From NCBI GenBank assembly GCA_963823335.1, contig CAWGLD010000007.1, forward strand, positions 288,001-352,000: a stretch of DNA of 64,000 nucleotides. Direction: 5' to 3'. Source of the DNA: an uncultured delta proteobacterium. Lineage in GTDB: Bacteria > Desulfobacterota > Desulfobacteria > Desulfobacterales > B30-G6. Below the pieces are notes generated by a model. The model made no database searches. It was given only the letters and a program-made list of their open reading frames with translations, and was not told the DNA's origin. Positions 46-12,969 of the stretch are shown here, one piece after another; the first letter of the stretch is position 1, and each line of letters opens with the position of its first letter. The translations under genes and the position numbers were made by a program.

Positions 46-1833
46 ATGGTTAAAAAAGGCGCCACTGACAGACAAAGGCTCTTGGACGCGGAAATCTCCT
101 TTGTGGGAAAGCAGGAACGGCACGGGAAAACGGCCGTTGCCCTGATATACCCGAATACGTATCACCTGGGCATGTCAAACCTGGGTTTCCAAACAGTCTA
201 TCGGCTTTTGAACGAATTGGATGGTATCGTCTGTGAAAGGTCCTTCCTCCCGGATCAAGACGTGGCCAACACAGGCGATATCATCTCAATCGAATCCGGA
301 CGACCCATTTCGACCTTCGATATCGTTGCCATCTCCTTGTCCTTTGAGAACGACTATCCCAATCTGCTCACCATTCTTCAAAAAGCCGGACTTCCCTTCC
401 GTTCCATCCACAGAAACGAAACCCACCCCCTCATCATTGCCGGGGGGGTTACCTGTTTGCTGAATCCTGCGCCCATCGCACCTTTTATAGACTGTTTTCT
501 GATCGGCGAGGCAGAAGCCAATCTGCCCGGTTTTATGAGAATCGTCCAGGAAACAGACACGCGGGAAACCTTGTTGCTCCGGGCCTCGCAGGAAATAGAG
601 GGTATTTATGTCCCCGGTTTCTACAGGGAAATCTATCATCCGGACAATACGTTCCAGGAATTGAAACCCCTGAAAGATGTCCCCCACGTGATCAAAAAGG
701 CCTATGTCCGGGACATCACCCGGACACCGGCCTGCAGCGCCATCGTGACACCCAATACCACGTTTGATCAAACCTACCTGATCGAGGTGTCCCGAGGCTG
801 TCCTCACGGATGCCGCTTTTGCGGTGCTGGTTTTGTGTATCGCCCTCCCCGTTTCAGAGATCCGCATCTGCTGGTATCGTGTCTTCATCATGGACGTGCC
901 CAAACCCATAAAATTGGTCTTGTAGGGGCAGCGGTCTCCGATCTTCCTGGACTCGGCGATATCTGCAGGGCTGCCGAAAGCACCCAAGCCCTTGTTTCAT
1001 TCAGTTCGCTCAGGGCGGATGCCCTCGACCAAGACCTGATTTCCCATCTGTCTAAAAGCAAGGTCAAAACAGCCACAATTGCACCCGACGCCGGGTCTGA
1101 ACGCTTACGACGCTGTATCAACAAGGGTATCTCCGAAAAAAGCATCCTGGCTGCGGCGGAAGCCCTTGTCACCGAAGGCATCCCCAATCTCAAGCTCTAT
1201 TTCATGATCGGTCTGCCCACCGAAACCATGGAAGATATCGAAGCCATCATCGAGCTCTGCAAAAAGGTGAAACACGTTTTTTTAAAATCGAGTCGTATCA
1301 AAGGTCGCATGGGCACAATAAGCGTGAGTATCAATTCTTTTGTCCCCAAACCCCACACACCGTTTCAATGGGCGGCCATGGATGACATCCAGACATTAAA
1401 GTTGAAACGCAAGCATATTCAAAAAGGTCTCAAACGTGTCCCAAACATCCGCATGAATGCCGATATCCCCCGAGGTGCATATGTACAGGCCCTCCTGTCC
1501 CGTGGTGATATGCGCGTAGCAGACATCCTTGAGGCAGCACATGGCAATGAGGGCAACTGGCCAAAAACTCTCAAGGCCTCCACCCTTGACACCGATTTTT
1601 TTGTGCACCGGCAAAGAGCTACCAACGAAAACTTCCCCTGGGATTTTATAGATCATGGCATCCGGAAGTCCTTTCTTCTGGCTGAATATCGAAAAGCGGT
1701 GCGTGGTGACACAACACCCCCCTGTGATGTGGAAGTCTGCCGGAAGTGTGGCGTCTGCAATGATAAAAATAACTTGAAAGCCTTCTTACATTATGGTAGT
1801 TCGTGCAAGGCTATTGAAAAGCCAAACAGTTGA
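46..1833 (+). CDS. B12-binding-domain radical SAM protein (TIGR03960/YgiQ-like)
   Basis: N-terminal YPNTYHLGMSNLG, radical SAM motif EVSRGCPHGCRFC, LKLYFMIGLP, C-terminal CxxxxCxxCxxC. Confidence 0.85.
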   Translation: MVKKGATDRQRLLDAEISFVGKQERHGKTAVALIYPNTYHLGMSNLGFQTVYRLLNELDGIVCERSFLPDQDVANTGDIISIESGRPISTFDIVAISLSFENDYPNLLTILQKAGLPFRSIHRNETHPLIIAGGVTCLLNPAPIAPFIDCFLIGEAEANLPGFMRIVQETDTRETLLLRASQEIEGIYVPGFYREIYHPDNTFQELKPLKDVPHVIKKAYVRDITRTPACSAIVTPNTTFDQTYLIEVSRGCPHGCRFCGAGFVYRPPRFRDPHLLVSCLHHGRAQTHKIGLVGAAVSDLPGLGDICRAAESTQALVSFSSLRADALDQDLISHLSKSKVKTATIAPDAGSERLRRCINKGISEKSILAAAEALVTEGIPNLKLYFMIGLPTETMEDIEAIIELCKKVKHVFLKSSRIKGRMGTISVSINSFVPKPHTPFQWAAMDDIQTLKLKRKHIQKGLKRVPNIRMNADIPRGAYVQALLSRGDMRVADILEAAHGNEGNWPKTLKASTLDTDFFVHRQRATNENFPWDFIDHGIRKSFLLAEYRKAVRGDTTPPCDVEVCRKCGVCNDKNNLKAFLHYGSSCKAIEKPNS

Positions 1834-1849
1834 AAGGATTGGTTTCCTT

Positions 1850-2284
1850 ATGATCTCGAAACAAAAGATGAAGGTTGTGTATGGCCTCACGGCTTATTTC
1901 CTGGTTGTTGGCGTTTTATGCTATGCCGCCTTTCCTGTTTCAGCACCGGAAGAGCCCATGAGAATAATGTTCAAGGTCACGGCCGGCAAGGTTCTCTTTG
2001 ACCATTATTCGCATACATCCGAATCAGGCTACGGACTTTCCTGCTGGGATTGCCATCATCATCCCCTGGACGATGATGCGGCACTCATTGCTTGTGGGGC
2101 GTGTCACACTGCCAATGAAAACGCGGCGCAACCTCCCGAAATATGTAGTGATTGCCATGAACCTGATGAAATTAAAGATACGCCGATCATGAAACGGTCT
2201 GATGCCTTCCACAAGGGATGCATCGACTGCCATCAGGCGTTCGAGGCCGGTCCCATCGAGTGTGCATCATGCCATATCATGTAG
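1850..2284 (+). CDS. membrane-anchored multiheme cytochrome c (class III/c3-like), 5 CxxCH motifs, first gene of rnf operon
   Basis: ATG 1850 with AAGGA upstream; N-terminal hydrophobic helix; VLFDH; CWDCH, CGACH, CSDCH, CIDCH, CASCH. Confidence 0.85.
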   Translation: MISKQKMKVVYGLTAYFLVVGVLCYAAFPVSAPEEPMRIMFKVTAGKVLFDHYSHTSESGYGLSCWDCHHHPLDDDAALIACGACHTANENAAQPPEICSDCHEPDEIKDTPIMKRSDAFHKGCIDCHQAFEAGPIECASCHIM

Positions 2285-2355
2285 CGATCTAAGGGCGAAT
2301 GCGCTTGTCCAGATGGTTTTTCAATGTCAAGCGGTCAAGGATAAAAGGTACTCAT

Positions 2356-3639
2356 ATGATGAAACGGTCATTTTTTTCCGTAACGGCACCACGTTTTCAG
2401 GTTGATTCGATACCGGGCGTGTTACCTGATTCTGTCCGGATTGAGACACCTCGTGAGATCATGCTTCTGATCGAAGAGACTGCTGAAAACGGGCATGAGA
2501 TGATGATCCATAAGGGTGACCCCGTCAAAACAGGACAAAAAATATCCCTGACACCTGACTCGGGGGCCTATGCCATCTCCACCGTAACCGGTACCATTAC
2601 CCATATCGAGTCCTTTCCAGGAGAGTCCGGAAAGCAGTTTACGGCAGTATCTGTTGCCGCGTCCAAAGAGGCGGACCTTGACGGGCACTTTGCCGCCTAC
2701 TGCCAGGCACCCTCCCTCAAAGGCGCTGTCGACCTGCTGCAGTGCTTGCCCGGAAGTCCTACATTTGAAATCTTTAGCGATGCGGACAAACCAATCCAGA
2801 CCATCGTCATCAATGCCATGGACCAGGATCTGTTTATCATAACCGCGCAATATGCCCTGAAAGCTTTTTATCAAGAACTGACGCAGGGTATCCAACATCT
2901 CAAAATCATTACCGGTGTCGAAAACATCGTTATCGCCGCCCCGCAGGACGCCATCCAGGGCTATGGTGACATGGGCGCATCCGTCATAAGTGTCGGCAAA
3001 AGCTATCCTGAAGGATTGCCGCATCTTGTAGCTCAGAAAGTGATGGGCCATGAAATCTCTGTCGGAAAAAATTTCCAGGATCTTGGCCTGGCCTTTCTGA
3101 GTGTGGAAGCAGTCGCTTCACTGGGCCGCTCTTTACAAAACCAGGTAATGACCAAGACCAAACTGGTCACCTTTCTGGACAAGAAGGGAAACCGTTCACT
3201 GGTATCGGCCACCGTGGGCACTCCCATCCGGGATATCTTCAAGCGCTTTCAGGTGAACGTAAACGATCAGGATCGGATTATCATCGGCGGCCCGTTAAAC
3301 GGCTACAGCACCTACACGGATGCGTTTCCCGTCAGACCCGATACCGATGCCGTTCTCCTGCAGGATAAGGACGATGTTGCGTTTGTTTCGGATTATCCGT
3401 GTATCAATTGTGGTGATTGCATTCGCGTCTGCCCCGCCAGAATGCCGGTCAACATGCTGATTCGCCTTCTCGAAGCCGGGGAGTATGAAGAAGCCGCGGA
3501 AAGTTACGATCTCTATTCCTGTCTCGAATGTGGGCTCTGCAGTTATGTGTGCGTATCAAGAATACCCATCTTTCAATCCATCAGACTGGCTAAATATGAG
3601 CTCGGTCGCGCGGCTACCGGGGAGGCAGCAGATGAATAA
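2356..3639 (+). CDS. rnfC: RnfC-like subunit (divergent), 2x[4Fe-4S]
   Basis: GDPVKTGQ, STVTGT, YPEG, VGTP, GGPLNG, CINCGDCIRVCP and CLECGLCSYVC; first rnf gene of the rnfCDGEA run. Confidence 0.85.
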   Translation: MMKRSFFSVTAPRFQVDSIPGVLPDSVRIETPREIMLLIEETAENGHEMMIHKGDPVKTGQKISLTPDSGAYAISTVTGTITHIESFPGESGKQFTAVSVAASKEADLDGHFAAYCQAPSLKGAVDLLQCLPGSPTFEIFSDADKPIQTIVINAMDQDLFIITAQYALKAFYQELTQGIQHLKIITGVENIVIAAPQDAIQGYGDMGASVISVGKSYPEGLPHLVAQKVMGHEISVGKNFQDLGLAFLSVEAVASLGRSLQNQVMTKTKLVTFLDKKGNRSLVSATVGTPIRDIFKRFQVNVNDQDRIIIGGPLNGYSTYTDAFPVRPDTDAVLLQDKDDVAFVSDYPCINCGDCIRVCPARMPVNMLIRLLEAGEYEEAAESYDLYSCLECGLCSYVCVSRIPIFQSIRLAKYELGRAATGEAADE

Positions 3640-4594
3640 CCCAAGAAAACTGATCGTATCCCATGCGCCTTTCATCCATATCGGGAGCAGCATACCCCAG
3701 ATGAGTCTTCATATCATTCTGGCCGCGCTACCGGCCGTCATTTTAGGGGGCATGTTCAGATTTGGCGCGCCTGCCATCGCTGTGGTAAGTTTTTCCATTG
3801 CTACCGCCATGTTATGGGAAATAGCCATCAATCTTGTTTCCAAAAAACCCGTTACAGTGGGCGACGGCAACGCCGCAGTCATCGGTCTCATATTCGCCAT
3901 GTTTCTGCCGGCCACGGCGCCCTGGTGGTTTGTCCTGACAGGGACATTTATTGCCATCGTGATCGGGAAACAGATTTTTGGCGGCATAGGCAGCAACCCC
4001 TTCAATCCCGTAGCCCTGGCCCTTGCCATCCTGATGGTTTCCTGGGGTGATTTTCTTGACTTCGATGAAATGTATCGTCATTTTCATTTTGACTTTGTGC
4101 CGACATACCATTTGGCGACTCTGAAGCACTTTGGTCTCGATGCCGTCGAACCTCTCAGGTTAATGGATCTGCTTCTCGGACGACAAATCGGCGGTATCGG
4201 CGCTACTTTCGGCATCGGTCTCATTCTGGGGGGCGCCTATCTGATGATCAGAGGCTTTATCCGCTGGGAAATCGCCCTCTCGTTCCTGGGGGGTATTTTT
4301 ATCACCGCCCTCATATTCAACATCATCGACCCGGCCCGCTTCGCAGACCCGTTTTTCCACCTGTTGACCGGATATACCCTGGTGGCAGCGTTCTTTCTGG
4401 TACCTGAGGACTCTTCTTCACCCGTCAATTTCATTCCCATGCTCATATATGGGACACTTGGCGGTATCATGACCGTTTTGATACGTAATATCGGCGCCTA
4501 TGTCGATGGAGCAATCCTGGCTGTTCTGGTAATCAATCTGCTGAATCCATTGCTGGATAAGATCCGGCCCAAGGCACTGGGAAAGGTTGAATAG
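3632..4594 (+). CDS. rnfD: RnfD-like membrane subunit
   Basis: SHAPFIH, KQIFGGIGSNPFNP, multiple TM helices; overlaps rnfC end; GGAGG SD. Confidence 0.9.
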   Translation: MNNPRKLIVSHAPFIHIGSSIPQMSLHIILAALPAVILGGMFRFGAPAIAVVSFSIATAMLWEIAINLVSKKPVTVGDGNAAVIGLIFAMFLPATAPWWFVLTGTFIAIVIGKQIFGGIGSNPFNPVALALAILMVSWGDFLDFDEMYRHFHFDFVPTYHLATLKHFGLDAVEPLRLMDLLLGRQIGGIGATFGIGLILGGAYLMIRGFIRWEIALSFLGGIFITALIFNIIDPARFADPFFHLLTGYTLVAAFFLVPEDSSSPVNFIPMLIYGTLGGIMTVLIRNIGAYVDGAILAVLVINLLNPLLDKIRPKALGKVE

Positions 4595-4595
4595 T

Positions 4596-5186
4596 ATGCG
4601 TGAAATGATCAAGATGATCGTTGTCCTGACAATTCTCTGTTCATTTTCGGGCGGCCTGCTGGCCGCCATCAGGGATAAAACCAAAGACAGAATCGAAAAC
4701 CAGCAATTGACATTTGTGAAGGGCCCGGCCATTATGGCCATCCTGAACGGCGCATCCAACGACCCTATCGCCGATCGTTTCAAGATAGATGACCAGGGCA
4801 TCGAGCGTACTTTCTTTATCGGCGTATTCGACGGCAAGTCCGAATCGGTGGCTTTCGAAAGTTCGGGAAAAGGCTTCGGTGGCGATATCGGCGTCATGGT
4901 GGGGGTAAATACAACCGATGACCAGGTCCTGGGCGTCGGCGTCACCACCCACAGTGAGACACCCGGTGTGGGGTCAAAGGCCAAAACCGAACCGTCTTTT
5001 ACAGCGCAATTCAAGGATAAGCCGCTGATCGGTACCTTTCAGGTCAAGACCGATGGTGGCCAGGTGGATATCATCTCCGGGGCAACCGTGACATCGCGGG
5101 GGGTCAGTGTGGCGCTGACAGAGGCCAGCGCAGTTTATCAGAGGCTGAAACCCCAGATCGTTGAAAAATTAACGGCATTCAAGTAG
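4596..5186 (+). CDS. rnfG: RnfG FMN-binding subunit
   Basis: N-terminal TM, GFGG, HSETPGVG, flavinylation motif DIISGATVTS. Confidence 0.93.
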   Translation: MREMIKMIVVLTILCSFSGGLLAAIRDKTKDRIENQQLTFVKGPAIMAILNGASNDPIADRFKIDDQGIERTFFIGVFDGKSESVAFESSGKGFGGDIGVMVGVNTTDDQVLGVGVTTHSETPGVGSKAKTEPSFTAQFKDKPLIGTFQVKTDGGQVDIISGATVTSRGVSVALTEASAVYQRLKPQIVEKLTAFK

Positions 5187-5196
5187 GGAGAAGGCC

Positions 5197-5799
5197 ATGG
5201 CGAAAACAATCGCGCAAGAATTTACAAAAGGCTTGTGGAACGAAATACCCCCATTTCGACTCGTTCTGGGGTTGTGCCCGGTACTGGCAGTAACCAAAAC
5301 AGTGGAAAATGGTATCGGGATGGGCCTGGCAACCACTTTTGTGCTGGTCTGCTCCAATATCCTTGTATCTTCCCTGCGCAAGGCTATTCCGAACAAGGTC
5401 AGAATCGCCTGTTTTATCATTATTATTGCCACCTTTGTCACGGTTGTCGAACTGGTCATGCAGGCATATACCTATCCCCTGTTCCTGAAGTTAGGTATCT
5501 TTATTCCCCTCATCGTGGTCAACTGTATCGTTCTGGGGCGGTCTGAAGCGTTTGCCTTCAAGAACGGTGTTGTGGCCTCTTTTGCGGACGGGCTTGGCAT
5601 GGGCATTGGCTTCACCTTGTCTCTGGCGGCTCTGGGTGCTGTACGTGAATTGTTCGGCAACGGCACCCTGACGATCTGGGAAACACCCATTCAAATATTC
5701 GGTCCCTCGTTTCAACCATTTACGTTCATGGTCGAAGCACCCGGTGCATTTATCTGCCTCGGTCTTATGCTGTGTGTCATGAACATGGCCGGAGAATAA
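5197..5799 (+). CDS. rnfE: RnfE membrane subunit
   Basis: LGLCPVLAVT, FIPLIVVNC, RELFGNG. Confidence 0.95.
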   Translation: MAKTIAQEFTKGLWNEIPPFRLVLGLCPVLAVTKTVENGIGMGLATTFVLVCSNILVSSLRKAIPNKVRIACFIIIIATFVTVVELVMQAYTYPLFLKLGIFIPLIVVNCIVLGRSEAFAFKNGVVASFADGLGMGIGFTLSLAALGAVRELFGNGTLTIWETPIQIFGPSFQPFTFMVEAPGAFICLGLMLCVMNMAGE

Positions 5800-5812
5800 C
5801 AGGAGAACAGAG

Positions 5813-6388
5813 ATGGGCGACTACATTGTCCTGGCAATCAGCTGTATACTCATCAACAACATCTTACTGGCACAGTATTTGGGCAACTGCCCGTTTCTTG
5901 GCACATCCAAGAAAATGGAAACCGCCGTGGGCATGGCCATGGCTGTTGTGTTCGTCCTGGTACTGGCCGGGGTGATTACCTGGCTCGTCAATACCTATGT
6001 TCTGCAGAAGTTCGGCCTGGAATATCTTCGCACCATTGCCTTCATCTTCGTGATTGCATCTCTGGTGCAGCTTGTTGAAATGTTTCTGAGAAAAAGTATC
6101 CCGGCTCTCTATGCCGGCCTGGGGATTTTTTTACCCCTCATCACCACCAATTGTGCCGTCATGGGTGTCTGCCTTATCAATGTCAACGAAGAATACACCT
6201 TTCTTCAGGCCCTGGTGGCCTCCATGAGTTACGCCATCGGGTTCGGGCTGGCACTCATCCTATTTGCGGGTGTAAGGGAACGCATACTCCTGGCCAGGGT
6301 TCCCAAACCCCTCCAGGATACCTCCATCGCCCTGGTCACCGCCGGTATTCTCTCCCTGACTTTCTTCGCGTTCAAAGGGATGGTCTAG
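5813..6388 (+). CDS. rnfA: RnfA membrane subunit
   Basis: LGNCPFLG, FLPLITTNCAVMG, AGVRER. Confidence 0.95.
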   Translation: MGDYIVLAISCILINNILLAQYLGNCPFLGTSKKMETAVGMAMAVVFVLVLAGVITWLVNTYVLQKFGLEYLRTIAFIFVIASLVQLVEMFLRKSIPALYAGLGIFLPLITTNCAVMGVCLINVNEEYTFLQALVASMSYAIGFGLALILFAGVRERILLARVPKPLQDTSIALVTAGILSLTFFAFKGMV

Positions 6389-6441
6389 CCTGAAAACATC
6401 TGAACTGAATGATAGAATGTGATATCTTTTCTGCGAATATC

Positions 6442-7032
6442 ATGCCGAAAATCACAGCCATTTATGGAAGCCCGCGGCGAAAAGGCAACACCAGTCGATT
6501 GCTGAAGCAAGCTGTTGCCGGTGCCAGGGAACAAGGTGCCGTGGTAAACGAATTCTTTCTACGTGAAGAAAAAATATCCCCCTGTCTGGAAATCTACGGT
6601 TGTAAAATGGACGGCAATTGCGTCATCAAAGACGATTTTCATCGGGTACGCAACAGCATGTTGGAATCCGGCGGTGTCATGCTGGCTTCACCGATCTTTT
6701 TCTACACCGTCAGTGCCCACACCAAAATATTCATGGACAGATGCCAGTCCTTATGGGTAAAAAAATATTGGATCGAGGGACTGCCTTTCAGTCAGTGGGA
6801 AACAAAACGAAAAGGTCTTTTCATTTCCGTCGGGGCCACCAAAGGTAAAAAACTTTTTGATGGGGCCTTGCTCACCGTTAAATACTTTTTTGACGTTATT
6901 GATGCCAACCTTTGGAAATCCCTGCTTTATCGCGGACTTGATTTTGAAAAAGACATCCTTGATCACCCGGACTATCTCCAGGAAACCTATGAAGCGGGAA
7001 AGCAGTTAGCGATATCACTGCAAGTTAAATAA
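6442..7032 (+). CDS. flavodoxin-family / iron-sulfur flavoprotein-like FMN reductase
   Basis: GSPRRKGNT, SPCLEIYGCxxxxxCVIKDD, ASPIFF, KIFMDR. Confidence 0.85.
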   Translation: MPKITAIYGSPRRKGNTSRLLKQAVAGAREQGAVVNEFFLREEKISPCLEIYGCKMDGNCVIKDDFHRVRNSMLESGGVMLASPIFFYTVSAHTKIFMDRCQSLWVKKYWIEGLPFSQWETKRKGLFISVGATKGKKLFDGALLTVKYFFDVIDANLWKSLLYRGLDFEKDILDHPDYLQETYEAGKQLAISLQVK

Positions 7033-7331
7033 GTTGGGAGAAAGGGTTCAAGGAGTCCAGGATTCAAGGATTCAAGTGTTTGTTTTCCAGGGATGTGATC
7101 ATCGCTTTTAGCATTCTCTCTACATCCCCAAGCTCCTCTCTTAATCCCTGAAGCTTTTCCTTGTTCATATAATCCAAATCACCGGATATCATCGTCTGCG
7201 TTTCTAATTCACAGCCTTTAACTCTTTATAATTCTTAAGCATTCAGCTGGTGCCTCACTTCGTCTCACTCGAACCCTGGACCCCTATAATCCTTGAATCC
7301 TTAATTTGGATCAACTCTTTGGGGATGATCC
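7028..7331 (-). mobile_element. non-autonomous cassette, copy 1, with internally deleted four-helix-bundle gene
   Basis: Minus strand begins GGATCATCCCCAAAGAGTTGATCC, has 8-mer GGATTCAA/GAATCCTT repeats, and aligns with copies at 40720-41014 and 47105-47298. Confidence 0.8.
7064..7242 (-). pseudogene. four-helix-bundle (23S rRNA IVP-like) pseudogene
   Basis: MLKNYKELK joined out of frame to CELETQTMISGDLDY...VERMLKAMITSLENKHLNP*; central part missing. Confidence 0.8.
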
Positions 7332-7361
7332 AATAGGTTAACAATACACATAGGGAGGGAC

Positions 7362-7556
7362 ATGAACAATTATGAGCTTCTGCTTCCCTTTACTATTTGT
7401 GAGCTTATCGATGAACTCAATCGAAAGCTGACCTCTCAGAGTAAGCGCTCAGCCGGTGTAGAACGCGACTTGCTTCAGCTCCAGATTGAAGAAACTCCCC
7501 TCCTTGTATCGTATCGGTCTTGGATGTCAAAAAGCCAAGATAACTTGACAAGTTAA
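7362..7556 (+). CDS. possible small protein (64 aa), unknown
   Basis: GGGAGG SD just before ATG; no recognisable motif. Confidence 0.35.
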   Translation: MNNYELLLPFTICELIDELNRKLTSQSKRSAGVERDLLQLQIEETPLLVSYRSWMSKSQDNLTS

Positions 7557-7722
7557 TAAAAATACAAATTATTACTTAAACACCACCACCTGATACATAT
7601 TCTTTGATGTCAATCAAGATCCTTTTGCCTAAACATTGATCTTGAAACAAAAACCTAAACAGGCTTTGGGTAAAATGACCATTTGTTAGGCTAACGTGTA
7701 ATAAACCATGGAGGGTAGAACA

Positions 7723-8790
7723 ATGAAAAAAAACTGTTATAAATTATTTACGTATTCGTGCACGATTGCGGTCATTGTCTTATTGGGACTGCAGCCTGTG
7801 CAGGCGCTGGAGGCAAAGCTTTCCGGTCAAATCAACAGAGCACTCATGTGGGCCGATAATGGAAAAGATACGTCGGTTTTGAATGTGGACAATGACAATT
7901 CCTCCACCCGCTTCAGCTTTACAGGTTCCGAGGAAGTCAGCGATACCGTCAAAGTTGGTGTTGTTTGGGAGACCGAGTATCAATCCAATGCATCCAACAA
8001 TGTGGATGTCGGGCAGGATGATGATGGGACATCAGCTTTTAATGATCGAAAACTGGAGGCCTATTTTGTGGTACCCTTCGGTAAGATTTCCATCGGTCAG
8101 GGTGATGGCGCGGCCAATGGAACCTCCGAGGAGGATTTGTCCGGTACCAGCGTGATCATGTACTCGGGAGTTAATGATACAGCCGAGAGTATCCAATTCC
8201 GCGACAAGAACGATACGCCGATTACCAAGGTTGGCAGTACTCGCAGCAATTTTGATGGGTTAAGCCGTAACGATCGCTTGCGATACGACACGCCCAACTT
8301 TGGAGGCGCAACATTCTCGGTCAGCGGCACCAATGGCGATGCCTATGAACTGGCAGCACGCTATTCGGCAGATTTCGACGGTTTTGGAAAAATCACCACT
8401 GCCATCGGATATGTAGATGCCAACAATCGAACGGATCCGGAATACACCCAGATTGGCGGATCGGTGTCCTGGTTGCACACCTCGGGTATCAACCTGACCG
8501 TTTCTTCCGGAACACGTGACATCGACGATACCAGCAGGAACCCTGTCAACTACTACGGCAAACTGGGATACAAATTCGACATCCACGCCATTGCCGTTGA
8601 ATATGGCATGACCGAAGACCTGGCTCAAAAAAAGGATGAATCGAAAAACTACGGTTTGGCTTATGTGATTACCCCCTGGAATGGCGTAGAATTCTATGGT
8701 GCATATCGTACATATATGCTTGACCGCGATGGGACTTCAAACATAGAGGATATTCGTCAGGTCATGCTAGGTACACGTGTCAAATTCTAA
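7723..8790 (+). CDS. outer-membrane porin (Gram-negative porin family)
   Basis: Signal peptide ending VQA, SSTRFSFTG, FGKISIGQG, LRYDTP, C-terminal Phe (GTRVKF). Confidence 0.88.
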   Translation: MKKNCYKLFTYSCTIAVIVLLGLQPVQALEAKLSGQINRALMWADNGKDTSVLNVDNDNSSTRFSFTGSEEVSDTVKVGVVWETEYQSNASNNVDVGQDDDGTSAFNDRKLEAYFVVPFGKISIGQGDGAANGTSEEDLSGTSVIMYSGVNDTAESIQFRDKNDTPITKVGSTRSNFDGLSRNDRLRYDTPNFGGATFSVSGTNGDAYELAARYSADFDGFGKITTAIGYVDANNRTDPEYTQIGGSVSWLHTSGINLTVSSGTRDIDDTSRNPVNYYGKLGYKFDIHAIAVEYGMTEDLAQKKDESKNYGLAYVITPWNGVEFYGAYRTYMLDRDGTSNIEDIRQVMLGTRVKF

Positions 8791-8811
8791 AATTATTTCA
8801 TGGAACTTATT

Positions 8812-9192
8812 ATGAAGGCAAGTACGATGCTTACCCGTATGGCGTTGCTGGTGTCCATACTGATCATGGGTGTTTGGAGTTGTGCCGCCAAGCCTTTTGA
8901 TCCACCCCAGACTGGTGAAATCCCTAAAGGACCCGGTGTATTTTCCAAGGGAGAGGATGGAGTGGTACTTTACGATTCAAACAAAAAGCGTTCGCCGGCT
9001 GTATCAACTCCGACACCAACGACCTCGTCAGGGGACGCGGAACAGCCTGCCATTGGATCCGACTATGAAGATTATGAAGGTTACCGACAATGGTTGCTCT
9101 GGAAAAAATCGGCCGTCGGTACCCCGGAATACGAGGAATTTCAACAATGGCGGGAGTGGCGCAAATACCAGGAATGGAAAAAACAAAAGTAA
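8812..9192 (+). CDS. putative lipoprotein, unknown function, Trp-rich C-terminus
   Basis: Hydrophobic signal ending VWSC; directly after porin; start uncertain (8800/8812/8827). Confidence 0.65.
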   Translation: MKASTMLTRMALLVSILIMGVWSCAAKPFDPPQTGEIPKGPGVFSKGEDGVVLYDSNKKRSPAVSTPTPTTSSGDAEQPAIGSDYEDYEGYRQWLLWKKSAVGTPEYEEFQQWREWRKYQEWKKQK

Positions 9193-9245
9193 ACCATCGC
9201 GTCAGCGTTCACTGGCGAGGTTGAAGGTTAAGCAAATTTGTCCAG

Positions 9246-10226
9246 TTAGTCAAGGACGTCCCCTAATTGTGCCAGACCATCCATGATCCGCTGCATATCC
9301 TTTGGAATGGGTGCTGTAAATGACATGGCCTGCTGCTCCACAGGATGGACAAAGCTTAAATGCCTGGCGTGCAGCATCTGTCTCCCGGCCGATCTCAGCA
9401 ATGTTTCCAGGGGAGTGCTGTTACGCTTCTTGTTACCAAGCTTTCCGTAAGTATATACGGCATCGCCAACGATCGGATGATGCATGGATGTACAATGTAC
9501 CCGGATCTGATGCGTCCGGCCGGTTTTCAACTCCAGTTCCAGCAGGGTCGCGGCTGTATAGCGTACCTTTACACGCCAGTGTGTTTCGGCATCACGCCCT
9601 TTGGCACTGACCACGGACATCTTTTTTCGGTCTACAGGGTGCCGGCCGATGGGAAGCGAGATATTACCGGATTCAGACCCTAACACACCGTGGACCAAAG
9701 CCAGGTAAGTTTTCTGAACCTCGCGATTCTTGAACTGCCGGCTCAGGTTTTCAAGCGTCAACCGGTTTTTAGCCACCACCATGGTTCCCGAGGTGTCCTT
9801 GTCGAGCCGGTGAACGATCCCGGGTCTCAGTTCCGCGTTGATACCCCCGAGTTCGGGACAATGGTACAGCAGTCCGTTAACAAGGGTGCCGTCATCGTTA
9901 CCTGGCGCAGGGTGAACCACCAGACCGGCAGGCTTGTCGATGACGATGAGGTGCCTGTCTTCAAACAGTATGTTCAGGGGTATGGCTTGCGCTTGCAGAG
10001 AAGGGGGTTCATACACCGGGATGCAACCTTGGATCTTTTCTCCGGGTTTGACACGGTAACCTGGCTTTTTCAGGTTGTTTTGGATCGTAATACGGCCTTC
10101 CTGAATGAGCGTGGCGGCAAAAGATCTGGAACAATCCGAACGGTAAAAAGAAACCACCCGATCAAACCGTTGGCCGGCGTCAGATTCAGCGACGGTGATG
10201 ACAAATTCATCTGGGGGGAACATCAT
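9246..10226 (-). CDS. rluD: RluA/RluD-family 23S rRNA pseudouridine synthase
   Basis: S4 domain, IDKPAGLVVHP, HRLDKDTSG, TGRTHQIRVH. Confidence 0.92.
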   Translation of the reverse strand: MMFPPDEFVITVAESDAGQRFDRVVSFYRSDCSRSFAATLIQEGRITIQNNLKKPGYRVKPGEKIQGCIPVYEPPSLQAQAIPLNILFEDRHLIVIDKPAGLVVHPAPGNDDGTLVNGLLYHCPELGGINAELRPGIVHRLDKDTSGTMVVAKNRLTLENLSRQFKNREVQKTYLALVHGVLGSESGNISLPIGRHPVDRKKMSVVSAKGRDAETHWRVKVRYTAATLLELELKTGRTHQIRVHCTSMHHPIVGDAVYTYGKLGNKKRNSTPLETLLRSAGRQMLHARHLSFVHPVEQQAMSFTAPIPKDMQRIMDGLAQLGDVLD

Positions 10227-10237
10227 GTGGATGGGAA

Positions 10238-10786
10238 TTACTTTTCTTCGGGTACGAACAAAGATTCTATTTCGGCAACAATGGTCTCTTCTTTTGTGTT
10301 CCTGGCCGTGGACAGCTCCTTGACCAGAAGGCCCTGGGCTGTATCGTAGAGTTTTCTTTCACCAAAAGAGAGATCTTTTGTCAACCGCAGTATGGAGAGA
10401 TCCCGAAACACTTCCGCGACTTCATACAGAGAGCCGGTCTTAATTTTATCCATATATTCGCGATATCTGCGATTCCATGTCTGGTTATCGATGGTGGATT
10501 CCTGTCTGGTTTTCATGACCTCGATAATCTTGGGAATTTCCTTCTCACTGATCACTTCCCGCAACCCCACTGATACGACATTCCAGGTAGGAATCATGAT
10601 CACCATGCCATTCTCGACGATTTTCATGATATAGAAATCGTGGGTTTCCCCATTGATCACACGGCTTTCGATTGCTTCGATCTTGCCGACACCATGGGCC
10701 GGGTATACAGCCAGATCGCCCACCTCGAATGTTCTGGCAGGCACATCGCTTTTTATATCGGATTCATTCTCGGATTTATTTGACAT
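10238..10786 (-). CDS. carD: CarD/CdnL-family RNA polymerase-binding regulator
   Basis: FEVGDLAVYPAHGVG, TWNRRYRE, LSFGER. Confidence 0.92.
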   Translation of the reverse strand: MSNKSENESDIKSDVPARTFEVGDLAVYPAHGVGKIEAIESRVINGETHDFYIMKIVENGMVIMIPTWNVVSVGLREVISEKEIPKIIEVMKTRQESTIDNQTWNRRYREYMDKIKTGSLYEVAEVFRDLSILRLTKDLSFGERKLYDTAQGLLVKELSTARNTKEETIVAEIESLFVPEEK

Positions 10787-10872
10787 TCTCACACCACAAA
10801 CAGTTGAAACACGTGGATCAAACTTACTTATATGAAAGGGAAATATAACACTCTTGAACCAAACAAGCAACG

Positions 10873-10909
10873 AAAAAAAGGATTGGTGCATCTCTGCACC
10901 AATCCTTTT
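10873..10909. terminator. intrinsic terminator downstream of hppA
   Basis: AAAAGGATTGGTGCA-TCTC-TGCACCAATCCTTTT perfect stem with A/T tails. Confidence 0.85.
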
Positions 10910-10937: not shown

Positions 10938-12950
10938 CTACATCAGGAACGGTACCATCAGCAGTGCCACCACATTCAGAATCTTGATCATGGGATTCAC
11001 TGCGGGTCCAGCGGTATCCTTGTATGGATCGCCAACCGTATCACCGGTAACGGCCGCTTTGTGTGCGTCACTCCCCTTGCCGCCCAGGTGACCATCCTCG
11101 ATATACTTTTTGGCATTGTCCCAGGCAGCGCCTCCGGTGGTCATGGAGATGGCCACAAAAACACCCGTGACAATACTACCGATCAGCAGACCGCCCAGGG
11201 CCACCTTGCCCAGCAGAAAGCCAACCAGCAGCGGTGCGATAACCGGCAGAAGGGCCGGAACGATCATTTCTTTCAGTGCAAACTTCGTCACGATATCGAC
11301 GCATGCACCATAATCGGGTTTGGCCGTACCTTCCATGATACCCGGTATGTCGCGGAACTGACGGCGAACTTCGTCAACCACGGCACCCCCGGCATTACCC
11401 ACCGCTTTCATGGCAATGGAAGCAAAGAGGTAGGGAAGCAGCCCGCCGATAAAGAGCCCGATGATGACATTGACATCACTCAGATCGAATCGAATCAAGC
11501 CCTCTTTACCGCCATGCAAGGTAAATTCCTGTACATAGGCCGCAAAAAGAACCAGGGCTGCCAGGGCTGCCGAGCCGATGGCATATCCCTTGGTGACGGC
11601 CTTGGTGGTGTTGCCCACCGCATCGAGAGGATCGGTTACGGCGCGGACACTGTCATCCATGTTGGCCATTTCGGCGATCCCGCCGGCATTGTCGGTAATG
11701 GGTCCGTAAGCGTCGATGGCAATGACCATACCGGTCATGGAGAGCATGGACATGGCTGCCATGGCGATACCGTACAGACCGGCAAAACTGAAGGCCAGCC
11801 AGATGGCAAGGCAGATGGCCAGAATCGGTGCGGCCGTAGCCTGCATGCTGACTGCCAGACCAGCAATAATGTTGGTGCCGTGCCCGGTTGTGGACGCTTC
11901 TGCAATGGCTTTTACCGGACCGTAGATACCGGTATAATACTCGGTGATAATCACGATCACGACGGTCAGGATCAGTCCGATCAAGGTACAGTAATAGATG
12001 GACATTGTTGAAAGATCACCCACGCCCACAAACATCTTGGTTGTGGCATAATAGAAGGCGATGGCAGCCAGAATAGCCGCTCCGAACATTCCTTTGTAGA
12101 GCGCGCCCATGATGTACTCGCTCTTGCCGAGTTTTACAAAGAAAATCGCAATAATGGATGCGATGATCGATATGGCGCCCAGTACCAGCGGAAATTCTGT
12201 AGCGATCTGCACATCCGGAAAAAGCAGATGCCCGATGAGCATGGCCGCCACGGCAGTCACCGCGTAGGTCTCGAAAAGGTCGGCCGCCATACCGGCACAG
12301 TCGCCCACATTGTCGCCTACATTGTCGGCAATGGTGGCCGGGTTTCGCGGATCATCCTCCGGAATACCTGCCTCAACCTTACCCACGAGATCGGCGCCAA
12401 CGTCGGCACCTTTGGTAAAGATACCGCCGCCGAGACGGGCGAAAATGGAAATAAGACTGCCGCCGAATCCAAGCGCCACCAGTGCGATGACATCATGTGT
12501 AGCGGCGTAGTAGCCTGCGGTGACGGTCAAAGCCAGACCGGCAACGATCATTCCGGTTACGGCACCACCCCTGAATGCCATGGCAAGACCTGCTGCCATG
12601 CCCTTCCTTGCGGCCTCTGCCGTTCTGACATTGGCGATAACAGACACACGCATGCCGATATAGCCTGCCAAAAATGAAGCCACGGCTCCGATAAGGAAAC
12701 CGATGGCGGTCTTGGCGCCCATGGCGGCGAAGATCACGATAAAGATGATGACCCCGGCAACACCCATGCTTTTCATCTGACGGTTCAGATATGCGATGGC
12801 ACCTTCCTTGATGGCATTGGCAATCCCCTGCATCTTCTCATTACCTGCCGGAGCACTCTTTACAATCGTGGCAAGGATAACGGAAAATAAAACGCCGACA
12901 ACGCCGACCAGCGAACAGATTAACGGTATATTGTTCATTACAACGTCCAT
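10938..12950 (-). CDS. hppA: membrane H+-translocating pyrophosphatase, predicted K+-independent
   Basis: [32 protein letters not shown] (Lys at the K+-dependence position), [17 protein letters not shown]. Confidence 0.95.
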
Positions 12951-12969
12951 TCTTTCCTCCATCTGGTGT

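Follow-up and report, generated by a model that had tools for sequence, protein, structure and literature searches.

A six-gene Rnf2-type cluster without its own rnfB in an uncultured Desulfobacterales bacterium, and a distant RnfB paralogue paired with RseC

Background

What can an Rnf-type complex still do when no rnfB accompanies its genes and its RnfC has given up the motifs for flavin mononucleotide (FMN) and NADH? This question is raised by a six-gene cluster, cytochrome-rnfC-D-G-E-A, lying near the start of a 64,000-nucleotide (nt) stretch of DNA (hereafter the window; positions 288,001 to 352,000 of contig CAWGLD010000007.1, abbreviated C7, in assembly GCA_963823335.1) from an uncultured delta proteobacterium of the order Desulfobacterales. 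A preliminary description, made from the window alone, had regarded the cluster as a rewired Rnf complex that could conduct electrons between the cytochromes of the periplasm and a partner in the cytoplasm docking on RnfC. In the following, the subunits encoded by the cluster are designated RnfC2, RnfD2, RnfG2, RnfE2, and RnfA2, two other contigs of the genome are called C1 and C2, and loci and genomes used for comparison are given by working numbers (L and G) where they have to be told apart.

A related system has been described under the name of "Desulfobacula toluolica Tol2-type" Rnf by Dörries et al. 2016, with an RnfB of about 700 amino acids (aa) carrying NAD-binding sites (PMC5109826) and an RnfC in which the NADH-dehydrogenase and SLBB domains are reported to be absent and the Fe-S clusters retained (PMC5109826, PMC11887813). 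In Desulfococcus multivorans and Desulfobacterium autotrophicum this complex, Rnf2, occurs beside an A. woodii-type Rnf1, and both are made (PMC5109826). Rnf2 is further reported to belong to the core genome of the Desulfobacteraceae, with abundant and constitutive formation in six strains (PMC11887813, 2025, Sci Adv), and in the published working model it links the ferredoxin and NAD pools (PMC11887813). Citations here and below stand for portions of the papers named.

Results and discussion

Identity of the cluster

By orthology and gene order, the locus is the predicted six-gene core (cytochrome, RnfC2, D2, G2, E2, and A2) of an Rnf2/Tol2-type complex of Desulfobacterales (Table 1). As in Tol2-type Rnf2, its RnfC has neither the Complex1_51K nor the SLBB domain and retains two [4Fe-4S] clusters; the six core genes are orthologous to, and syntenic with, those of clusters that carry a large rnfB and have the same flanking genes, the identities to large-RnfB loci being 41-48% for RnfC2, 57-66% for RnfD2, and 70-92% for RnfA2; and an Rnf1 coexists with it in the form of a canonical rnfCDGEAB on contig C1. 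It differs from Tol2-type Rnf2 in that no NAD-binding RnfB of about 700 aa is encoded with the cluster, and only an rseC-paired paralogue is found in the genome. Orthologues of RnfC2 were present at E<=1e-60, a threshold that the genome's own canonical RnfC did not reach, in 342 of 401 sampled genomes of the order. The cluster variant as first described is mostly a rediscovery of a published one: the statement that the cluster type is not new was correct (PMC5109826, PMC11887813), and the loss of the RnfC motifs had already been published for Tol2-type Rnf2 (PMC5109826, PMC11887813).

Compared with canonical Rnf (A. woodii 9eri, Clostridium tetanomorphum 7zc6, and Azotobacter vinelandii 8ahx), the order C-D-G-E-A, the SGAT motif of RnfG, the [2Fe-2S] Cys of RnfA and RnfE, and the RnfC fold with its two [4Fe-4S] clusters are shared, whereas RnfC of the window has no FMN/NADH site, RnfD has no FMN-bearing Thr, the operon has no polyferredoxin RnfB, and a cytochrome c gene takes the lead.

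Loss of the cluster-adjacent rnfB

No rnfB or apbE was found in the window, in agreement with the preliminary description: among 37 weak or strong TIGR01944 matches genome-wide none lay inside C7:288001-352000, and the sole ApbE match of the genome was on contig C1. This absence holds true of the cluster in this lineage but not of the system as a whole. A further 20 clusters were picked for long contigs and spread over families, 16 outside the family of the window and 4 inside it. A large RnfB of about 700 aa, here called type A for its position next to the cluster (type D denoting the paralogue on contig C2), adjoined the cluster in 16/16 of the loci outside the family, 12 times past rnfA and 4 times between the radical-SAM and cytochrome genes. 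Type A RnfB consists of a transmembrane (TM) helix, the RnfB Fe-S domain (PF04060), a ferredoxin domain, and a module resembling the FAD/NAD(P)H flavoproteins GltD and NfnB, with Fer4, Fer4_20, and Pyr_redox_2 among its domain matches. In the Rnf2 system the predicted NAD(P)H site has left RnfC and sits on the large RnfB of the relatives.

In 14 loci from related metagenome-assembled genomes (MAGs), an RnfB of 686-701 aa followed straight after rnfA in four, one of them clipped by the contig end; seven with continuing sequence had no large RnfB, and three ended too early. Within the family of the window, type A was found at the cluster in 0/11 loci extending past rnfA, including 0/4 in the further sample. 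A search of 15 family genomes with a type A query likewise yielded an orthologue among the full-length matches in 0/15; such matches were obtained in 15/15, and they were only the type D paralogue, with 37-41% identity, and in two genomes a third paralogue. A radical-SAM gene on the 5' side and rluD, carD, and hppA on the opposite strand on the 3' side are flanks common to the relatives, and in L066, among other loci, the genes that come after the large rnfB are the same downstream trio, of 322, 192, and 627 aa. Given these shared flanks and the large rnfB of the relatives, the slot at nt 6389-9245 probably once held rnfB. A tblastn search of nt 6301-9300 of the window for the large RnfB types or a remnant of RseC found none, the best E values being 2.7 and 0.07.

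These comparisons indicate that the family of the window has lost the type A rnfB from a syntenic slot, with purifying selection still acting on each of the six core genes. Such a loss is not confined to this family, since in L028 (genome G003), from a distant lineage and with an RnfC2 43% identical to that of the window, no rnfB is adjacent and only type D is found in the genome. The cofactor losses of RnfC and RnfD described below occur in clusters retaining rnfB as well and predate the loss of rnfB.

Maintenance of the core

In comparisons with three family members, all six core genes had a ratio of nonsynonymous to synonymous substitution rates (dN/dS) of 0.02-0.15, the lowest values (0.02-0.06) being those of rnfA and rnfE; dS was saturated and two of the estimates failed. 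The RnfC2 gene was present in 12/12 sampled family genomes in addition to that of the window, and the cluster was intact in most related loci, some genes being split into pieces in L023 and L025. Contigs from four estuary metatranscriptome libraries, at an identity of at least 95%, covered 24 to 30 of 30 bins, and single contigs spanned the radical-SAM gene to rnfC, or rnfG through rnfA to the flavoprotein gene, which denotes presence in RNA libraries rather than proof of transcription or of one transcript. Stretches of the window left uncovered in some of the runs were given no weight. These data bear on whether the cluster is a relic, decaying or merely structural since rnfB was lost and devoid of redox function. 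Three cofactor sites (FMN and NADH of RnfC, and the FMN Thr of RnfD) are gone together with the dedicated RnfB, as would be expected of a relic; nevertheless, the retention of the gene across the family, the intact clusters, the low dN/dS, the invariance of the remaining cofactor ligands, and the presence of the sequence in the 4 RNA libraries all speak against decay, as does the finding that the losses in RnfC and RnfD are common to clusters keeping rnfB and are older than its loss. A relic is accordingly highly improbable.

RnfC2

As described previously, RnfC2 keeps both [4Fe-4S] motifs: two CxxCxxCxxxC motifs start at residues 349 and 389, and all 8 Fe-S Cys were invariant in a 41-sequence alignment. 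The replacement of the FMN and NADH motifs was borne out by HMMER alignments with three RnfC chains of known structure, 9eri_C (2.8e-27), 7zc6_C (2.8e-22), and 8ahx_C (2.7e-21), in which LPGSPTF of RnfC2 faces the glycine-rich loop GLGGATFP and NAMDQDL faces NGAECEPY. The substitutions are family-wide, with the consensus "clPG.P.f" and "ng.D.DLlv.T" in an alignment of 116 homologues (those of at least 400 aa among 120 listed, the protein of the window included). RnfC2 scored 163 bits on TIGR01945 (cut-off 246) and 23.3 bits on Complex1_51K (cut-off 31.2), had 0 SLBB matches, and reached 70.9 bits on the NqrA models of NCBIfam (cut-off 450). In a Foldseek search with its AlphaFold model, which had a predicted local distance difference test (pLDDT) score of 78.9, the best match was RnfC 9eri_C (4.7e-24) and the next was NqrA 8acy_A (4.2e-17). 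The FMN and NADH motifs that characterize RnfC of a canonical Rnf are thus both lacking, and the data support the view that RnfC2 is a putative RnfC reduced to a ferredoxin-like protein with two clusters. The earlier proposals that this paralogue is not a canonical ferredoxin:NAD+ oxidoreductase, that it is cytochrome-linked, and that its RnfC is ferredoxin-like agree with these findings.

RnfD2

A further cofactor site is missing from RnfD2, in which Tyr159 (nt 4106-4108) occupies the position of the FMN-bearing Thr of canonical RnfD/NqrB. Alignment of the single RnfD2 sequence to 7zc6_D left a gap at this position, while in a profile of 41 sequences the consensus Tyr paired with the Thr preceding Pro-Leu in both 7zc6_D and 9eri_D. 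The column contained Y31, F4, S2, D2, H1, N1, W1, and T0 in 42 cluster-type sequences. When 1.84 billion cluster representatives were searched, Thr was present in 81 of 115 that were aligned (those of 280-470 aa among the best 150); the 25 or so nearest to RnfD2 were mostly without the [ST]xAT-P motif, which was near-universal farther out, and the named members of the Thr-less clusters were MAGs of uncultured Deltaproteobacteria/Desulfobacterales or MAGs labelled only "bacterium". The covalent FMNs on the Thr of RnfG/NqrC and on the Thr of RnfD/NqrB are counted among the strictly conserved core cofactors (PMC12174285); of these two Thr, RnfG2 has its own and RnfD2 does not. RnfD2 appears to have lost the Thr that carries the covalent FMN. 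The loss is apparently undescribed, no mention of it having been found in the literature searched, with the 2025 supplement and the 2013 description of Tol2 outside its scope. The preliminary description had considered the cofactor sites of RnfG, RnfA, and RnfE intact, which is right for these three subunits, with sites conserved in 38-40 relatives, but does not extend to RnfD.

A Tyr is also present at the FMN-attachment position of the NqrB chain 9ud3_B, where it aligns to the Tyr of the RnfD2 profile, and because of this Tyr the chain ranks first among the NqrB chains against that profile. The chain is presumably an engineered FMN-less variant of NqrB in which Thr was changed to Tyr, and the RnfD2 family would then be its natural likeness.

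With no covalent FMN site in RnfD2, electrons may no longer be able to follow the textbook path, which leads from RnfG over RnfD to RnfC. This weakens the conduit idea of the preliminary description. In the form considered here, a complex devoid of RnfB would connect the periplasmic cytochromes with ferredoxin or the neighbouring flavoprotein as the acceptor in the cytoplasm, the electrons passing through the cytochrome, RnfG-FMN, RnfD, and the [4Fe-4S] clusters of RnfC2. This path would lack, in 42/42 sequences, a cofactor called strictly conserved (PMC12174285); the [2Fe-2S] Cys of RnfA2 and RnfE2 are kept, in the two subunits with the lowest dN/dS, which is hard to explain if there is no electron donor; and the flavoprotein is not conserved at the cluster. 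On the other hand, a conduit would account for the lack of a cluster rnfB in every family locus that extends past rnfA and for the invariant Fe-S Cys of RnfC2, and it is compatible with the RNA-library contigs that bridge rnfA and the flavoprotein gene. It also gains from 3 loci of two further families in which rseC directly precedes the cytochrome gene, as large RnfB at E<=1e-100 was found in 0/11 and 0/4 genomes of these families. On balance, the conduit is considered unlikely.

Cytochrome, RnfG2, RnfE2, and RnfA2

The cytochrome gene heads the cluster in every case. The protein has CxxCH motifs at residues 65, 82, 99, 124, and 138; five such haem motifs are found in members of the family of the window and four in many other orthologues. 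Its N-terminal hydrophobic helix, a 19-mer at residues 9-27, is conserved across 38 aligned orthologues. RnfG2 reached 261.8 bits on NF045876 RnfG_DVU2794 (cut-off 205), compared with 67.9 bits for the canonical RnfG of the genome. The conserved helix and this RnfG assignment are indirect hints that the cytochrome may be a subunit of the complex. SGAT of RnfG and the Cys pairs of RnfE and RnfA are kept in 38-40 relatives (SGAT in 40), and the intramembrane [2Fe-2S] Cys pairs expected of a canonical Rnf are present in both RnfA2 and RnfE2.

Varied degrees of identity were shared by RnfG2 with its orthologues. It is just 62-66% identical to those of L019, L020, L021, L022, and L024 and 81-88% identical to those of L023, L025, and L026; in L019, L020, and L024 the other core subunits (RnfC2, D2, E2, and A2) are 84-92% identical to those of the window. 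This pattern suggests an exchanged or fast-evolving rnfG allele inside the genus.

Type D RnfB and RseC

A search of the genome for rnfB and a canonical rnf cluster, proposed in the preliminary description, located both, as genes only: contig C1 carries the canonical rnf, and a distal rnfB of type D stands beside rseC on C2. The type D RnfB, the strongest match of the genome to the rnfB model, is a 691-aa protein encoded at L039:8893-10968 on the minus strand; its domain set is the same as that of type A, to which it is just 37-38% identical. The gene is directly trailed by those for an RseC_MucC protein (3.4e-28), which is the only RseC of the genome, and a PilZ protein. Type D was paired with RseC in 4/4 other genomes examined, one of which also had type A at its cluster. 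RseC has been linked to Rnf before: in Clostridium ljungdahlii rseC lies upstream of rnfC and its deletion is reported to abolish autotrophy as deletion of rnf does, and RseC of Escherichia coli acts with Rsx (PMC9124969, PMC12174285).

Large RnfB was detected at E<=1e-100 in 326/401 genomes of the order. A hand tally gave about 195 genomes with two large-RnfB matches, about 65 with a match at the level of type D only, and about 66 at that of type A only, two candidates being scored per genome and the classes being blurred by fragmented assemblies. By-eye comparison placed RnfC2 together with large RnfB in about 310 genomes, RnfC2 only in about 32, and large RnfB only in about 16, the last being mostly incomplete assemblies.

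RseC is found next to the core as well. In another family, the arrangement cyt-rnfCDGEA-rseC was observed in 4/4 loci extending past rnfA (5 loci fetched), and an RnfB of 266-270 aa was encoded no more than about 4 kb upstream in 4/4 loci examined. Over the N-terminal 215 residues, the identity of this RnfB was highest with type D (52-57%), lower with type A (42-47%), and lowest with canonical RnfB (38-39%), and in a tree it clustered with type D with a support of 81/96, below the star threshold of the tool. Further neighbourhood links of RseC and type D to Rnf2 are the 3 loci mentioned above with rseC just ahead of the cytochrome gene, and L028 with its RnfB-less cluster and type D alone. One closed genome has type D and an Rnf2 cluster and no canonical RnfC orthologue, so type D is not tied to Rnf1. 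The portions of the Tol2 and Rnf2 papers covered, with the supplementary text and fig. S18 of 2025 outside their scope, contain no mention of the loss of the RnfD Thr, of two RnfB lineages, or of RseC; two RnfB lineages linked through RseC, as well as a family whose core has no RnfB of its own, appear to be undescribed.

Two observations were made on the large RnfB proteins themselves. In the type D rnfB genes of L094, L095, and L096, an in-frame TGA stands opposite Cys46, the leading Cys in the N-terminal Fe-S motif PGAN-C-GGCG, and more than 12 type D genes with one TGA were found in the order-wide table; this TGA is a candidate codon for selenocysteine, which would act as a ligand of the Fe-S cluster. 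Yet another large RnfB-like protein, a third paralogue that shares 36-42% identity with either type and again has one in-frame TGA, is encoded in L047 (G001:C3:409995-415052) and at G358:C2:124793-126835; its neighbour in L047, read from the translation alone, is the beta subunit of a 2-oxoacid:ferredoxin oxidoreductase.

Other Rnf and Nqr complexes of the genome

The canonical rnfCDGEAB on contig C1 (L017, G000:C1:236000-249000) encodes an RnfC of 498.8 bits with GLGGAAFPT and NGCECEPYL intact and an RnfB of 303 aa, and the same contig carries nqrABCDEF (L040, G000:C1:1864000-1880000). With the cluster of the window as the third, three Rnf/Nqr-type complexes are encoded in one 4.4-Mb genome.

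The presence of a canonical RnfB raises the possibility that the 303-aa polyferredoxin RnfB of Rnf1 also serves the Rnf2 core, which would then act as a ferredoxin:cytochrome c oxidoreductase similar to that of Methanosarcina, where Rnf of Methanosarcina acetivorans with its multihaem cytochrome passes ferredoxin electrons outward (PMC12174285). The N-terminal regions of all RnfB types, being 38-48% identical, would be in keeping with such sharing, yet canonical RnfB is the least similar (38-42%) to the RnfBs at Rnf2 clusters. Moreover, Rnf2 is far more widespread than sharing would need, the closed genome mentioned above has Rnf2 and no canonical RnfC orthologue, and no neighbourhood link was seen between the parts of Rnf1 and Rnf2. 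A shared subunit is therefore quite improbable.

Proposed electron path

Because the [2Fe-2S] ligands of RnfA and RnfE are conserved, a cytoplasmic donor would be needed, and the genome offers only two RnfBs, canonical and type D; the neighbourhood evidence favours type D with RseC as the donor. The cytochrome is the most likely carrier after RnfG-FMN, since RnfD2 has no covalent FMN site and a membrane-anchored cytochrome is always encoded by the first gene. The invariant Fe-S clusters of RnfC2 indicate that a cytoplasmic port of the ferredoxin type persists as well. From these considerations, the Rnf2 core would be served in trans by type D RnfB and RseC and would carry electrons from NAD(P)H to the periplasmic cytochrome, a reading that has about an even chance of being right. 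Type D RnfB, with RseC, would dock on RnfA2/E2 and feed in electrons from NAD(P)H through its FAD and Fe-S clusters; these would pass over the [2Fe-2S] cluster of RnfA/E to RnfG2-FMN on the periplasmic face, and from there over the cytochrome c anchored in the membrane to the cytochromes of the periplasm, which would make the complex an NAD(P)H:cytochrome c oxidoreductase. The transfer may be coupled to ion translocation, or may run in reverse. The two clusters of RnfC2 would form a second, cytoplasmic port of the ferredoxin type, with an uncertain link, perhaps a non-covalent flavin, through the Thr-less RnfD2.

Several points weigh against service in trans by type D. Type D never adjoins the cluster in 5 genomes whose type D locus was read, and its GltD part is more divergent than that of type A (210 versus 398 bits on TIGR01316). 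Most genomes carry both type A and type D, so that type D has its own function, which need not include service to Rnf2. The 8 invariant Fe-S Cys of RnfC2 are left unexplained if the electrons exit at the cytochrome, the published model, in which Rnf2 connects the pools of ferredoxin (at RnfC2) and NAD (at RnfB2), may still hold (PMC11887813), and the RNA-library contigs count only in the restricted sense given above.

Comparison with Na+-NQR and with cytochrome-linked Rnf

Rnf2 shares with the Na+-translocating NADH:quinone oxidoreductase (Na+-NQR) a soluble subunit of the RnfC/NqrA type with no NADH/FMN site and an NAD(P)H-oxidising flavoprotein in which a flavin domain is joined to a TM helix and a small Fe-S domain; in this respect the large RnfB is comparable to NqrF. 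For Nqr, an origin through duplication of rnf, loss of rnfB, and decay of RnfC has been proposed (PMC4014512), and the features of Rnf2 taken together resemble this path. The two differ in that RnfC2 keeps both Fe-S clusters where NqrA has none, the flavoprotein module is GltD-like instead of FNR-like, RnfD2 has no FMN Thr where NqrB keeps it, and a quinone site is not evident. Assignment of the cluster itself as an Nqr was rejected: it has no NqrF-like gene, its NqrA score is far below the cut-off (70.9 bits versus 450), and the true nqr is on C1.

It is possible, if rather doubtful, that Rnf2 is no ferredoxin:NAD+ enzyme with its ends exchanged but an ion-pumping NAD(P)H:cytochrome c oxidoreductase and an independently evolved analogue of Na+-NQR, with the fusion of RnfB and GltD in the part of NqrF and the RnfD/RnfC half disconnected. 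Electrons would then exit from RnfG-FMN to the bound multihaem cytochrome, and the Thr-less RnfD half would be partway on the road from RnfC to NqrA. Types A and D would be interchangeable input modules and RseC a general accessory of Rnf. In the family of the window, the pump would be driven by type D only, encoded in trans.

A multihaem cytochrome c gene directly before rnfC, the mark of cytochrome-linked Rnf, is found in the cluster of the window as in the Rnf of Methanosarcina acetivorans (MmcA) and Desulfovibrio (DhcA) (PMC12174285, PMC4841214), and RnfG of the window falls into the NCBIfam family named for DVU2794 of Desulfovibrio vulgaris. The Methanosarcina and Desulfovibrio operons keep a small RnfB, and that of Desulfovibrio also apbE (PMC4841214), whereas the operon of the window has neither. 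RnfB and RnfC of Desulfovibrionaceae are described as Rnf1-type (PMC11887813).

Layout of the cluster and contents of the variable segment

The features are listed in Table 1. The gene order cytochrome-rnfC-D-G-E-A, with the flavoprotein gene next, had been given correctly in the preliminary description, as the open reading frame (ORF) listing, Pfam, and NCBIfam agree. The cytochrome gene ends 72 nt before the start of rnfC2, rnfC2 and rnfD2 overlap by 8 nt, and the flavoprotein gene starts 20 nt past rnfA2 according to the ORF listing. A promoter scan of nt 1600-7800 gave 10 promoter-like sites versus 7.7 expected and was uninformative; terminator-like sites were mostly intragenic.

Table 1 Features of the Rnf2-type cluster and its surroundings in the window
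Feature	Position (nt)	Strand	Basis or remark
B12-binding radical SAM protein, TIGR03960-like	46..1833	+	Upstream synteny anchor
Cytochrome c3-family protein, membrane-anchored pentahaem cytochrome c, 144 aa	1850..2284	+	Pfam Cytochrom_CIII 9.9e-11
Cytochrome CxxCH motifs	2042-2056, 2093-2107, 2144-2158, 2219-2233, 2261-2275	+	
RnfC2 (RnfC-like), 427 aa	2356..3639	+	Pfam, NCBIfam, structural alignments
RnfC2 CLPGSPTF	2743-2766	+	In place of FMN loop
RnfC2 INAMDQDL	2809-2832	+	In place of NADH/FMN motif
RnfC2 [4Fe-4S] motifs	3400-3432, 3520-3552	+	
RnfD2, 320 aa	3632..4594	+	Pfam NQR2_RnfD_RnfE 7e-81
RnfG2, DVU2794-type RnfG family	4596..5186	+	NCBIfam NF045876
RnfG2 flavinylation motif SGAT	5076-5087	+	
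RnfE2	5197..5799	+	Pfam, NCBIfam, Cys motifs
RnfE2 [2Fe-2S] ligands			Cys27 (LGLCP), Cys110 (VNC)
RnfA2	5813..6388	+	Pfam, NCBIfam, Cys motifs
RnfA2 [2Fe-2S] ligands			Cys26 (LGNCP), Cys114 (TNC)
Variable segment, slot of type A large rnfB in relatives	6389..9245	.	Synteny
FMN_red-family flavoprotein	6409..7032	+	Pfam FMN_red 2e-18
RluD-like protein	9246-10226	-	Downstream synteny anchor; name from reading the translation
CarD-like protein	10238-10891	-	Downstream synteny anchor; name from reading the translation
Membrane pyrophosphatase HppA	10938-12962	-	Downstream synteny anchor; name from reading the translation

The variable segment contains the flavoprotein gene, a truncated element resembling an IVS protein gene, a porin gene (nt 7708-8790), and an ORF of 130 aa. 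The FMN_red flavoprotein, which the preliminary description had placed in the operon, was considered as a conserved partner of the core and rejected: 0 homologues were found in the 14 related loci, and its orthologues (80-88% identity) in 4 same-genus genomes sit away from the rnf cluster. Past the flavoprotein gene, nt 7042-7303 had a 22-103-fold cover of RNA-library contigs, with many loose ends at nt 7028-7042 and 7217. On its minus strand this region reads as a 12-codon remainder of a small gene, the full-length version of which (115 aa) is found at L025:11338-11685, and the region is flanked by inverted GGATTCAAGGATTCAAG-type repeats; an Rfam scan of nt 6300-9300 gave 0 matches. It looks like a widespread repeat element at the site of the rnfB loss.

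Conclusions

Two things appear to be new here. For the family of the window, it is the architecture: a core with no RnfB of its own, and the paralogue and RseC encoded in trans. For Rnf2 in general, it is an RnfD that lacks the Thr and a pair of RnfB lineages connected via RseC. The Desulfobacteraceae that carry Rnf2 account for a large part of the carbon oxidised in marine sediments (PMC11887813), and an RnfD2 with no covalent FMN, two NAD(P)H-binding RnfB lineages, and the linkage to RseC narrow the options for the reaction that Rnf2 catalyses. Whole families live with only the RnfB lineage that is not in the cluster, and RseC travels with either RnfB or the core. Rnf2 is also a present-day counterpart of the path by which Na+-NQR is proposed to have arisen from Rnf.

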